Source of the DNA: Methylococcaceae bacterium | GTDB lineage: Bacteria > Pseudomonadota > Gammaproteobacteria > Methylococcales > Methylomonadaceae | Length of the DNA stretch: 13,564 nucleotides | Assembly (NCBI GenBank): GCA_020048335.1 | Contig: JAIFMS010000027.1 | Coordinates: 1-13,564 of the forward strand | Direction: 5' to 3' | In this document: piece after piece, positions 10,139-13,114 of the stretch | How positions within the stretch are numbered: the stretch's first letter is position 1 | Layout: each line of letters begins with the position of its first letter | The notes under the pieces: model-generated | Told to the model about the DNA's origin: nothing | Database searches by the model: none | The model's input: the letters and a program-made list of their open reading frames with translations, nothing else | Translations under genes and position numbers: made by a program

Positions 10139-10696
10139 ATGTCTCAAAAACCAACAATCCTGCGCCGCACCCTTGTGGCACAAACTCGCTTATTTACCGT
10201 TGAAGGTTTGGAAATAGAATTTAGCAATGGACAAAAGCGCGATTATGAACGGCTTAAACGAAGTTCTGCTGGCGGCGCGGTGTTGATTGTTCCGATGTTA
10301 GATGCAGAAACGGTGCTGTTAATCCGTGAATATTCAGCGGGGGTAGACCGCTATGAACTGGGCTTGCCAAAAGGTAAAATAGATACGGGCGAGTCGGTGT
10401 TGGAAGCGGCAAATCGTGAACTTAAAGAGGAAGTGGGCTATGGGGCGCGGCAATTACAGTATTTAATGAGTCTGTCACTTGCGCCTGCCTATTTTGAACA
10501 TACGATTGAAGTGGTGCTAGCGCAAGAACTGTATCCTGAAAAATTAGTAGGGGATGAACCCGAAGAGCTGGAGGTGATTCCGTGGAAACTCAATCAAATC
10601 AAGGCACTCTTAGCCACAGGTGAATGCAGCGAAGCCCGTTCCATTGCGGCTTTATATTTATGCCGTGATTATTTTCGTGCTTTAGAAAAAAGATAA
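10139..10696 (+). CDS. nudE: NudE-type Nudix hydrolase (hydrolase of ADP-ribose / ADP-compounds)
   Basis: 185-aa ORF. The N-terminus MSQKPTILRRTLVAQTRLFTVEGLEIEFSNGQKRDYERL parallels E. coli NudE (QKPTILNVETVARSRLFTVESVDLEFSNG...). The Nudix box is GLPKGKIDTGESVLEAANRELKEEVG. The C-terminal LYPEKLVGDEPEELEV resembles NudE LYPESLEGDEPEPL. Confidence 0.88.
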   Translation: MSQKPTILRRTLVAQTRLFTVEGLEIEFSNGQKRDYERLKRSSAGGAVLIVPMLDAETVLLIREYSAGVDRYELGLPKGKIDTGESVLEAANRELKEEVGYGARQLQYLMSLSLAPAYFEHTIEVVLAQELYPEKLVGDEPEELEVIPWKLNQIKALLATGECSEARSIAALYLCRDYFRALEKR

Positions 10697-10699
10697 CCC

Positions 10700-13114
10700 A
10701 TGTCCGATTTAGACACGCTTAAAATTATAGAAGCCCAACTCAACGAATCGCTTACTCCCTGTGCGCTTGATACCCTTATGCACGGCAATGCGCGTTGTTG
10801 TTATGCCCTCAATGAAACCGAGCAAGTGATTGGGTTAAATTTACAAAATTGCCAATTAAGTAATATTAATTTCTTAAAACGATTTAAACAGCTTATTAGG
10901 CTTAATCTTAATTTTAATAAAATCAGCAAGCTATCGGCTTTAAAAGAATTGTATTTTTTAAAACAACTCACTATTCAAAAAAATGCTATTAGCGATATGT
11001 CGCCATTAAAACCACTGATTAATTTACAGTATCTCAATTGCCAAGATAATCAAATCAGCGATTTAAAATTTTTAAAAGAATTAACGCAATTAACCTCGCT
11101 AAACTGTCAAGCCAATCAAATTAGCCAGCTGAATGTATTTGAATTAAATAACTTAAGCAGTTTAAACCTAAGCTCAAATAAAATCACTAATATCAGTGCG
11201 TTAAGCGTATTGCAAAACCTTACTGTATTAAATATTAATTCAAACAATATTAATACCTTTCATTCATTAGAACATCTTGATACCTTAGTTGAGTTAGATT
11301 TACGCTTTAATCAACTACAAAAAATTGAACCCTTAGCTCAGTTAAAAAAGCTCCATACTTTATATTTAAGCTCCAATGAAATCAGTGAGCTTGAACCTTT
11401 ACAGGAATTAACACAATTAAGTCGGCTTTTTTTAAGCAGTAACAAAATTAGTCAATTACAGCCTTTGCAAAAATTACATAATTTAATTGAACTGGATTTG
11501 CGCTTTAATTATATTGTTGATTTAAGCCCCTTAGAACAATTAACCCAGCTTAATTTACTGTACTTAGAACATAATCAAATTCGGGATATAGCCGTTTTAA
11601 AAAATTTACAAAATTTAAGTTTAATTAATTTACGCAATAATCAAATTAAAGAAATTGAAGCGGTGCGGCATTTGTCAAATTTACAACAACTTTATTTAAG
11701 TCAAAATAAAATTGAAATCTTAGCAGAGTGGATTGTTGATTTGAATTTAAAAGTCAAATGGAGTATCGGCGGTGATGGGATTAGTTTAAGCGGCAATCCT
11801 ATTAGCATTCCGCCACAAGAAATTATTTGCCAAGGCAATAGCGCGATTAAAACCTATTTTAAAGCGATGGCTCAACAACAGCGTGGCTATTTAAATGAAG
11901 TGCGGGTGTTTTTAGTGGGGGAAACAGGGGTAGGAAAAACCTCTTTAGCCCGCCTATTGCGGGGCGAAGCCTTCAATGCACAAGAGCCAAAAACGCAACA
12001 CCTTGCCATTGGGCATTTGCAATATGCAGATATTAAATTGCATTTGTGGGATTTTGCAGGCGATAGTATTTTTCAAGCCTCCCAACGCTTTTTTTTCAGC
12101 GCGAATACGGTTTATATTTTAGTCGTCGATGCCAGCTCACATAAAAGTTGTGCATATTGGCTGAAAAAAATCGCTTATTTTGCCAATGACGTGCCGATTT
12201 TAGTGGTGTTTAATAAAGCGGATAAGGCGCAGAATCATGTGATTGATTCTAATGGGTTAATAAAACTGTATTCAGGATTGAATGAAAACAGTTTTTTTAC
12301 CCTTTCCTGCGCTAAAGATATTGGTGTAAGTGGTTTTAAACAAATTCTACTGCATACAATTAAGCAATTGCCCATGATTAAAAATTCAACTTTAGCTAGT
12401 TGGTTACATATTAGATCGGCATTATTGGAAAGACAAAAGTCACAACCGTTTATTTCACAGAAAAACTATCAACAGTTGTGTGAAAAATATGGATTAGAAG
12501 AACCTGAAAATCAGCAGCAATTAGCCCAATTATTGCATCAATTAGGCGTGTGTCTTTATTTTGAAAAAAACGCTCTTTCAGGGGCTTATTTAATTGAACC
12601 AACTTGGTTTATTTATCATTTGCATGGGTTATTAACGCGAAAAGAATTAGTGCATAATCATGGTAAATTTTCTTTAAGGTCATTAATGAAGCTAGCAAAA
12701 CAACAAAATAGACAGCCCGTGTTTTCTGTTAAAAAATATCGGTATTTTATTCAGCTTCTTTTGAAACAACAGATGGTTTATTTAGACAATAGCCGAGATT
12801 TATTTATGCCAGAATTGTTTTCCCTTCAACAGCCTGTATTTGAGTTTAATCAGAAAGATGGCTTGCGATTTAGGTTTTATGTTTATTATTTAGATGATGC
12901 GCTGCTGAATCAATTGATTGCTGCACTGCATGAAGATGTGGTGTTAGGCTGGAAAACAGGGGGGTTATTAAAAAATGAAGCGTTAAATAGCGAGGCATTA
13001 GTGAAGATTGATTTTGCAGAAAATAAAATCACGCTGTGTGTAACAGGGGATAAAAAACGGGCTTATTTTGCCCAGATGCAGCAAGTATTGCAATCCATTG
13101 TCATGCTCAAATAA
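10700..13114 (+). CDS. ROCO-family protein: about 14 leucine-rich repeats, a Roc (Ras-of-complex) GTPase and a COR domain
   Basis: 804-aa ORF. The repeats are 22-residue LRRs (L..L..L.L..N.I.D...L) from about aa 45-340, followed by the LRR-to-Roc linker GNPISIPPQEIICQGNSAIKTYF. The Roc G1/P-loop is RVFLVGETGVGKTSL (nt 11921-11944), G3 is WDFAGD and G4 is VVFNKADK. About 290 aa of COR-like sequence follow. The start codon lies only 3 nt after the nudE stop (taa at 10694-10696, atg at 10700). Confidence 0.85.
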   Translation: MSDLDTLKIIEAQLNESLTPCALDTLMHGNARCCYALNETEQVIGLNLQNCQLSNINFLKRFKQLIRLNLNFNKISKLSALKELYFLKQLTIQKNAISDMSPLKPLINLQYLNCQDNQISDLKFLKELTQLTSLNCQANQISQLNVFELNNLSSLNLSSNKITNISALSVLQNLTVLNINSNNINTFHSLEHLDTLVELDLRFNQLQKIEPLAQLKKLHTLYLSSNEISELEPLQELTQLSRLFLSSNKISQLQPLQKLHNLIELDLRFNYIVDLSPLEQLTQLNLLYLEHNQIRDIAVLKNLQNLSLINLRNNQIKEIEAVRHLSNLQQLYLSQNKIEILAEWIVDLNLKVKWSIGGDGISLSGNPISIPPQEIICQGNSAIKTYFKAMAQQQRGYLNEVRVFLVGETGVGKTSLARLLRGEAFNAQEPKTQHLAIGHLQYADIKLHLWDFAGDSIFQASQRFFFSANTVYILVVDASSHKSCAYWLKKIAYFANDVPILVVFNKADKAQNHVIDSNGLIKLYSGLNENSFFTLSCAKDIGVSGFKQILLHTIKQLPMIKNSTLASWLHIRSALLERQKSQPFISQKNYQQLCEKYGLEEPENQQQLAQLLHQLGVCLYFEKNALSGAYLIEPTWFIYHLHGLLTRKELVHNHGKFSLRSLMKLAKQQNRQPVFSVKKYRYFIQLLLKQQMVYLDNSRDLFMPELFSLQQPVFEFNQKDGLRFRFYVYYLDDALLNQLIAALHEDVVLGWKTGGLLKNEALNSEALVKIDFAENKITLCVTGDKKRAYFAQMQQVLQSIVMLK

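Follow-up and report, generated by a model that had tools for sequence, protein, structure and literature searches.

A group-1 Roco GTPase with a shortened COR-B domain and altered catalytic residues is encoded directly behind nudE in a Methylococcaceae bacterium

In a 13,564-nt stretch of DNA from a Methylococcaceae bacterium (GenBank assembly GCA_020048335.1, contig JAIFMS010000027.1; the whole stretch is hereafter the window) we examined a gene at positions 10700–13114 of the + strand (the ROCO gene), whose 804-residue product is a genuine group-1 Roco protein, composed of leucine-rich repeats (LRR), a Roc GTPase domain and a COR domain, and not a generic small GTPase. Judged from its sequence, this protein lacks three features of the canonical, dimerisation-activated prokaryotic Roco proteins, namely the switch II glutamine, the arginine finger and the dimerisation half of COR-B. 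We give a somewhat better than even chance (roughly 55%) to the reading that it acts as a GTP-binding switch in monomeric form, that its hydrolysis is slow or depends on a partner and its nucleotide state repositions the LRR, and that it is expressed from the promoter of nudE, the gene immediately upstream.

Pfam searches of the protein identified LRR_4 (5e-48, in 11 stretches, above the curated cut-off), Roc at residues 402–508 (8.8e-22, 78 bits with a cut-off of 27; Ras also matched, at 4.1e-14), COR-A at residues 567–706 (5.2e-24, 85.2 bits, cut-off 35.3, model positions 3–142 of 143) and COR-B at residues 722–800 (4.3e-08, 33.5 bits, cut-off 27); besides these there was no further domain, and a kinase is absent. 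Behind an N-terminal cap, motif counting together with LRR_4 placed fourteen internalin-like 22-residue repeats in residues 46–345 (10835–11734, + strand), the motif recurring in register at 46, 68, 90 and so on to 331 with a spacing of 22 that fell once to 21. The Roc G domain, delimited by Pfam Roc and Ras and by its translated motifs, occupies residues 399–560 (11894–12379, + strand), followed by COR-A (12398–12817, + strand), which is helical in an AlphaFold2 (AF2) model, and by a short COR-B comprising the N-terminal half only, at residues 722–804 (12863–13111, + strand), as seen both with Pfam and in the orthologue alignment. A phmmer search of the PDB returned Roco2 of Methanosarcina barkeri (4wnr, 6e-46) as the best match, then C. 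tepidum Roco (3dpu, 5.8e-42; 6hlu, about 1e-41), to which the alignment extends over both Roc and COR, and human LRRK2 (~1e-10). The AF2 model was built from a 9-sequence alignment and had a mean predicted local distance difference test (pLDDT) score of 79, rising to 98 in the LRR, and a predicted TM-score (pTM) of 0.51; Foldseek matched it best to 6hlu, the C. tepidum LRR-Roc-COR structure (1.7e-48), and aligned it to 4wnr with a target TM-score of 0.86 and a root-mean-square deviation of 2.7 Å over Roc-COR-A. The architecture fits the definition of group 1 of the Roco family, in which LRR precede Roc-COR (PMC6337361).

An earlier note on this DNA, made from the sequence alone, had called the product an LRR-Roc-COR GTPase with about 14 LRRs, and assignment by profile hidden Markov models bears this out for LRR, Roc and COR as well as for the number of repeats; the alternative of a small GTPase without COR is ruled out by COR-A and COR-B matches above their cut-offs, and the one amendment to the COR assignment is that COR-B is matched over model positions 4–83 of 145 only. 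The description of the protein as eukaryote-like overstated its rarity: of 1.84 billion representative proteins searched exhaustively, 8309 were related to it at E≤1e-3 and 1097 at E≤1e-30, and the Roco family is common in bacteria, not rare. Word-indexed protein searches gave 6 matches with the Roc-COR part and 8 with the clade alignment, too few for a census or for a deep alignment to support structure prediction, and the 146 related Roc domains counted below, with the window protein included, come from the exhaustive search. Genome and metagenome contigs were also scanned with the clade alignment, and full-length orthologues were found only in Methylococcaceae/Methylomonas metagenome-assembled genomes (MAGs) and on unassigned metagenome contigs; the clade to which the protein belongs is restricted to Methylococcaceae.

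The Roc domain has the full set of motifs required for guanine-nucleotide binding, as its translation retains the P-loop (G1, GETGVGKTS, 11918–11944, + strand), the switch I threonine (Thr432), DxxG, the NKxD motif (G4, NKAD, 12212–12223, + strand) and a SAK-like G5 (SCAK). Switch II, or G3, reads WDFAGD (12047–12064, + strand), and when aligned by HMMER with Roco2 of M. barkeri and Roco of C. tepidum, hlWDFAGDsif falls opposite nfWDFGGQeim, so that DFAGD corresponds to DFGGQ column for column. The motif is thus changed at two positions and nowhere else, with Gly replaced by Ala at the x position and Gln by Asp455. The earlier note had taken the second Gly of G3 to be replaced, which came from reading the motif out of register, for the DxxG glycine is kept in all 146 Roc domains; its wider remark that G3 is atypical holds for the glutamine, which is present in 138 of the 146 (Asp in 3), and a comparison across bacterial Roco proteins leaves WDFAGD deviant at that position. 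The region around DFGGQ is the most conserved in Roco proteins (PMC6337361). By alignment to C. tepidum Roco, Ser479 of the window protein (12134–12136, + strand) stands at the position of the arginine finger, in the motif VVDASS where C. tepidum has LDSR; the column was mapped through the 3dpu numbering (LLLDS542R543). This Arg543 is an arginine finger conserved in prokaryotes, and its mutation abolishes GTPase activity (PMC4721548, PMC6337361). It acts in trans, completing the active site of the partner. In our census the finger was present in 141 of the 146 domains, and the Gln and the Arg were both missing only in the window protein and P0138.

Ras itself has Ala at the x position of G3 (DTAGQ), and LRRK2 combines Ala at x with no Gln at all (DFAGR), R1398 being at the position of Ras Q61. 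The LRRK2 mutation R1398L, designed as the analogue of Ras Q61L, increased GTPase activity (PMC4781896), and therefore a residue other than Gln is by itself no proof of slow hydrolysis in Roco proteins. An altered or very slow hydrolysis had been proposed earlier from G3, a ground which the LRRK2 result weakens; the loss of the arginine finger together with that of the COR-B dimerisation segment, neither of which the earlier note had seen, is a better argument for altered hydrolysis than the G3 change alone.

The same partial match to the COR-B model, positions 4–83 of 145, was obtained for all orthologues tested. In a multiple alignment canonical Roco proteins run on with ...ELVPLP..., whereas the Methylococcaceae clade ends at one common column: this is where the window protein and at least 10 members of the clade end, before the dimerisation segment, and the end of the window protein corresponds to about residue 885 of C. 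tepidum Roco (CtRoco). CtRoco, a protein of 1102 residues, continues through the COR-B part concerned with dimerisation and into a further C-terminal domain. The CORB subdivision of CtRoco, in which residues ~892–940 mediate dimerisation, and the COR-B dimer interface of LRRK2 have been described (PMC11052575), and the C-terminal half of COR is regarded as a dimerisation device, RocCOR-deltaC being a monomer (PMC6337361). Taken together, the window protein and its clade lack the stretch by which C. tepidum Roco and LRRK2 form dimers. No open reading frame (ORF) downstream of the ROCO gene encodes the missing part of COR-B, and in the relatives unrelated genes follow directly. The part that is left was predicted by AF2 as a compact beta-alpha-beta4-alpha unit (pLDDT 72–91). 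We considered whether the short COR-B could be a frameshift or assembly artefact and rejected this, as the same stop column recurs in at least 10 independent sequences with different, unrelated genes behind it; P0010 was left out as evidence on COR-B, since it may derive by truncation from a canonical protein like P0012.

Set beside the characterised systems, the window protein has the LRR-Roc-COR-A-COR-B order of CtRoco (PDB 3DPU, 6HLU, 8R4B) together with its P-loop, switch I Thr, DxxG, NKxD and WDFxG context, but identity is only ~27% and CtRoco has DFGGQ and Arg543 where the window protein has DFAGD and Ser479. The best PDB sequence match, the M. barkeri RocCOR-deltaC construct (4WNR), is monomeric and can be regarded as a laboratory analogue of the natural state of the clade, but it was cut at a different place: the truncation is artificial and removed all of COR-B, while native MbRoco2 has a COR-B and also keeps the Gln and the arginine finger (LDSR), neither of which the window protein has. 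Human LRRK2 shares the homologous Roc-COR tandem, but adds armadillo, ankyrin, kinase and WD40 domains to what in the window protein is only LRR, Roc and a short COR, and its COR-B is complete and forms the dimer interface.

The Methylococcaceae orthologues resembled the window protein in length, N-terminal cap, LRR number, short COR-B and a switch II without Gln, and differed from it in that identity ranged over 37–53% and that most keep the arginine finger (LDNR). Highest in identity was the ROCO protein of L009 (JACCEE011153039; 53%), with nudE upstream (77% identity) across a spacer of 52 nt, yrfG divergent from nudE and a cupin gene downstream. L003/L010 (L003 being the Methylomonas MAG CAKZJE010000031; ROCO 45%) have nudE upstream (72%, spacer 52 nt), with HsdM upstream of the pair and an HD-GYP-type gene, MoxR and a canonical ROCO downstream, and L004 (CAIQWF010000020; ROCO 44%) has nudE upstream (73%, spacer 62 nt), with a small ORF and a radical-SAM gene upstream and a PD40 gene 3 nt downstream, followed by purD. 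In L005, L007 and L008 (37–38%) there is no nudE and the gene lies between psd and a MiaB-like radical-SAM gene; in L061 (P0127; 30% over Roc-COR) there is likewise no nudE, and the gene has a 4-nt overlap with a PAS-GGDEF-EAL gene. Protein identical to that of the window was found on Joint Genome Institute (JGI) metagenome contigs and in one Logan assembly, in the same arrangement each time.

The genes directly downstream of ROCO vary among L061, L003 and L004, and two of the three are cyclic di-GMP (c-di-GMP) turnover enzymes: the PAS-GGDEF-EAL gene of L061 (1626–5359), which overlaps the ROCO stop, the DUF3391-HD_5 (HD-GYP-type) gene of L003 (10736–12049), and in L004 the PD40 beta-propeller-repeat protein (10434–11117), starting 3 nt past the ROCO stop and recalling the C-terminal WD40 of LRRK2. 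L003 also encodes, on its − strand at 13259–15937 and ~3 kb from the short copy, a second and canonical ROCO of 892 residues with DFGGQ and COR-B matched over 3–145 of 145, so that one genome carries both forms.

At the Gln position the Methylococcaceae clade has D, E or K throughout; the nudE-linked copies all have Asp (DF[AGS]GD), while the unlinked members have Glu or Lys. The L009 orthologue has in addition lost the arginine finger and has NYLA for NKxD and TNS for the Asp-x-Arg finger motif, such that its guanine specificity may be gone. This stepwise erosion, with Gln lost by the clade, Arg by the window protein and L009, and NKxD by L009 as well, suggests relaxed selection on hydrolysis, and one could go further and see the gene as a decaying relic that, deprived of catalysis and of its C-terminus, is on its way to becoming a pseudogene, a view for which it speaks that catalytic residues went step by step and that ROCO diverges much faster than nudE. 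We consider this very improbable: the ORF is intact at 804–809 residues in four lineages and ends at one shared column, at least 5 metagenome samples have this protein in identical or nearly identical form, the LRR and linker are 52–71% identical, and the short COR-B folds confidently in the AF2 model. Selection on the fold, as the intact ORFs and the conserved LRR and linker indicate, appears to be ongoing.

The gene upstream, nudE (10139–10696, + strand; 185 residues), encodes an ADP compounds hydrolase of the Nudix family, matching the NCBIfam equivalog NF008736 (270.7 bits, cut-off 169) over residues 1–181 of 185 and Pfam NUDIX at 2.8e-16, with a Nudix-box-like sequence GKIDTGESVLEAANRELKEEVG in its translation. 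That ROCO starts 3 nt past the nudE stop, as reported earlier, was confirmed by direct reading of the junction (10694–10702, + strand), where the nudE stop TAA (10694–10696) is followed by CCC and the ROCO ATG (10700). Both genes are in one reading frame, and therefore no earlier ROCO start is possible; the N-terminal sequence MSDLDTLKIIEAQ (MSDLD..) is matched by MSDIDVIHAIEKQ (MSDID..) in orthologues, which supports the start codon. As only TAA and one CCC codon intervene, read-through of the nudE stop would yield a Nudix-LRR-Roc-COR fusion; the stop was found in every sample where the gene was called. On the other side of nudE, and divergent from it, lies yrfG (9433–10089, − strand), a GMP/IMP nucleotidase of the HAD family (NCBIfam NF011564, 225.6 bits). 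It also adjoins nudE in L009 and is absent from this place in L003 and L004. nudE and yrfG form an ordinary gammaproteobacterial housekeeping pair, and yrfG is an ancestral neighbour outside the ROCO unit.

The window, L009, L003/L010 and L004, four lineages in all, keep the order nudE–ROCO, which is the sole conserved block there, the flanks being different. The earlier note would have counted an adjacency found nowhere else against the coupling, and it recurs in three other lineages; however, not every clade member has it, and all four linked lineages are from one bacterial family. The 52–62 nt spacers of the relatives share ATTTTTGGAAAnGnnATG, and L003 and L004 also share GATTACAAT; this stretch is deleted in the window, and coupling over 3 nt is a derived condition, peculiar to the window organism. 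A consensus scan found no promoter-like site on the + strand of the window between 10220 and 10840, where the sole terminator-like match is on the opposite strand, across the ROCO start, and consensus scans of the L009, L003 and L004 nudE–ROCO spacers found neither a sigma-70-like promoter nor a terminator. With no promoter or terminator in these spacers, co-transcription is therefore likely in all four lineages. It had earlier been called almost certain on account of the 3-nt gap; the gap and the lack of a promoter-like + strand site do make it plausible or likely, but the tight coupling is specific to this organism and the relatives have 52–62 nt.

It is also conceivable that nudE and ROCO are a functional module, in which NudE controls a nucleotide signal sensed by the ROCO protein or supplies the missing off-reaction of Roc. 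Such a module would fit with nudE–ROCO being the only block shared by the four loci, between HsdM, a 112-residue ORF or yrfG upstream and HD-GYP, PD40, cupin or CRISPR-like/toxin-antitoxin elements downstream, with Asp occupying the Gln position in all nudE-linked copies as opposed to E or K in the unlinked ones, and with the window genes being in frame and 3 nt apart. Yet the intact NKAD leads one to expect guanine nucleotides for Roc, whereas the reported substrates of E. coli NudE, which hydrolyses ADP-ribose, Ap3A and NADH, include no guanine nucleotides; orthologues of 37–38% identity lie between psd and a MiaB-like gene without a Nudix gene nearby, and another is coupled to PAS-GGDEF-EAL; the synteny of four lineages in one family is explained by shared ancestry; and nudE, at 72–77%, is more conserved than ROCO, at 44–53%, with no sign of co-evolution. 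We therefore hold a module to be improbable, and a functional link of ROCO to ADP-ribose metabolism would be hypothetical.

Our preferred reading, the monomeric switch expressed with nudE, can be laid out as follows. The ROCO protein would be a monomeric GTP-binding conformational switch with a GTP turnover that is slow or dependent on a partner, instead of the dimerisation-coupled cycle of CtRoco. Binding of GTP at Roc would be relayed via switch II and COR-A/COR-B so that the 14-repeat LRR is released or repositioned, by analogy with C. tepidum Roco, for which LRR movement is described; the LRR would be the only candidate surface for binding a ligand or effector. The gene would be transcribed from the nudE promoter as part of a two-gene operon and, because the Shine-Dalgarno sequence upstream of ROCO is weak, is probably translated in the window organism by termination-reinitiation. 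The linkage to nudE would most simply go back to an insertion, passed on by descent, downstream of a housekeeping gene with constitutive expression, and would imply no biochemical partnership. A bolder version, which we think unlikely, would have the clade be a natural COR-B-deltaC Roco lineage without a dimerisation-dependent GTPase cycle, the window protein being a monomeric and essentially hydrolysis-dead GTP sensor that takes its off-switch or signal from a partner, with NudE and the c-di-GMP enzymes of the relatives as candidates.

Several points weigh against the monomeric switch as we have framed it. Dimerisation via Roc–Roc or LRR contacts could still occur; given that a substitution at the Gln-equivalent of LRRK2 raised activity, hydrolysis could by analogy persist through another residue or a partner; and the placement of the domains relative to each other in the AF2 model is unreliable, at a 9-sequence alignment and a pTM of 0.51. 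As for expression and the linkage, promoter and terminator consensus scans are weak and Methylococcaceae promoters may differ from the consensus, and a nudE–ROCO pair that is kept where the flanks changed could equally mean selection for a functional link.

Base composition sets ROCO apart from its neighbour. The G+C content of ROCO and nudE, respectively, is 34 and 46% in the window, 30 and 44% in L009, 33 and 45% in L003 and 40 and 49% in L004, and G+C at third codon positions (GC3) is likewise below that of nudE in these lineages; therefore amino-acid composition alone does not explain the low G+C. The gap persists across genera despite the shared chromosomal position. Downstream of ROCO in the window (13150–13470), and in L001 (12430–12790, 13430–13720 and 14910–15024), there are mini-arrays of 3–5 copies of a 36-nt repeat, GTCTTAATCCCTTCTAAACAGGGAAGCCATTCAAAC, with a period of 68–71 nt and spacers of ~32–35 nt. 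The repeat resembles those of CRISPR (clustered regularly interspaced short palindromic repeats), its reverse complement reading GTTTGAATGG...ATTAAGAC. Arrays and small minus-strand cassettes (a BrnT toxin with a 92-residue ORF; an NTP_transf_8 protein) follow one another in alternation; the end flanks are shared among the arrays, and one "spacer", a G/C-run palindrome, is common to two of them. No cas gene was in view near the arrays, Rfam matched no family on the whole window, so the repeats downstream of ROCO correspond to no curated RNA family, and folding of the repeat yielded no more than a weak hairpin of 5 bp (z −1.2 and −0.8).

Such surroundings raise the question of whether the ROCO protein might belong to a conflict or defence island as an NLR-like (nucleotide-binding, leucine-rich-repeat receptor) sensor, its LRR recognising a component of an invader and its NTPase being the switch. 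ROCO falls short of nudE in G+C by 10–14 points in three of the four lineages and by about 9 in L004, and its GC3 is lower; the variable neighbours include the CRISPR-like mini-arrays and the BrnT toxin-antitoxin and NTP_transf_8 cassettes, in L003 a type I restriction-modification methylase and the second ROCO, and in L004 an nSTAND1-LRR protein; and ROCOs are proposed to be immune receptors in brown algae (PMC11378527). However, the protein is without an effector domain, no effector gene is conserved downstream of it, its chromosomal position is fixed across genera, unlike that of mobile defence genes, and the CRISPR-like repeat gave no match to viral contigs. A PADLOC search of ROCO, nudE, MVP (see below), yrfG and the NTP_transf_8 neighbour yielded nothing meaningful, the matches being a chance one of 13 bits to the P-loop for ROCO and a generic Nudix one of 23 bits for nudE, and the label of a defence system was therefore not adopted. 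A role in defence seems to us doubtful, with odds well on the low side.

Upstream of yrfG the window encodes a protein like the major vault protein (MVP) (6918–9362, + strand; 814 residues), with Pfam matches to MVP_shoulder (3.2e-27) and Vault_3 and a weak one to Band_7. More than 6900 of 8000 scored candidates matched this protein at E≤1e-5, and its best 120 relatives were 59–100% identical, those named coming from MAGs of Desulfobacterales, Anaerolineae, Bacteroidia, Melainabacteria, Ca. Venteria and Ca. Rifleibacterium; such conservation across phyla suggests strong constraint, horizontal spread, or both. The earlier note had seen in the nearness of MVP, ROCO and nudE a speculative parallel to the association of vaults with poly(ADP-ribose) polymerase (PARP) in eukaryotes. 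This did not hold up: Pfam and NCBIfam found no PARP-like domain in the five annotated genes of the window, and MVP is absent within 5–8 kb of ROCO in L003, L004 and L009. Conversely, no ROCO or Nudix gene was found in the flanks that could be read of two MVP homologues, L067 and L068 (81% and 71% identity), one of the contigs ending just past the MVP gene. The remainder of the window, 1–6526 on the minus strand, holds two large PAS-rich sensor kinases in tandem, identified from the ORF listing and profile searches, i.e., a 1486-residue CHASE-PAS-HisKA-HATPase-receiver hybrid histidine kinase (2066–6526, − strand) and the C-terminal part of a second PAS protein, a product of ~1625 residues that runs off the start of the window.

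Were the ROCO protein to have ordinary activity, the locus would be another bacterial LRR-Roc-COR gene behind a housekeeping gene. As neighbours, nudE and the c-di-GMP enzymes of the relatives are among the few conserved gene-neighbour clues to the cellular role of prokaryotic Roco proteins. For the Roc-COR core of the Parkinson's disease kinase LRRK2, bacterial Roco proteins serve as the principal structural models, and the coupling of GTP hydrolysis, dimerisation and activation is a matter of debate. If the bolder version, in which the clade is a natural COR-B-deltaC lineage, were true, it would offer a simple bacterial model of a Roc-COR that relays its nucleotide state to the LRR without dimerisation; and the clade would test whether the Roc-COR switch works as a monomer without fast hydrolysis.

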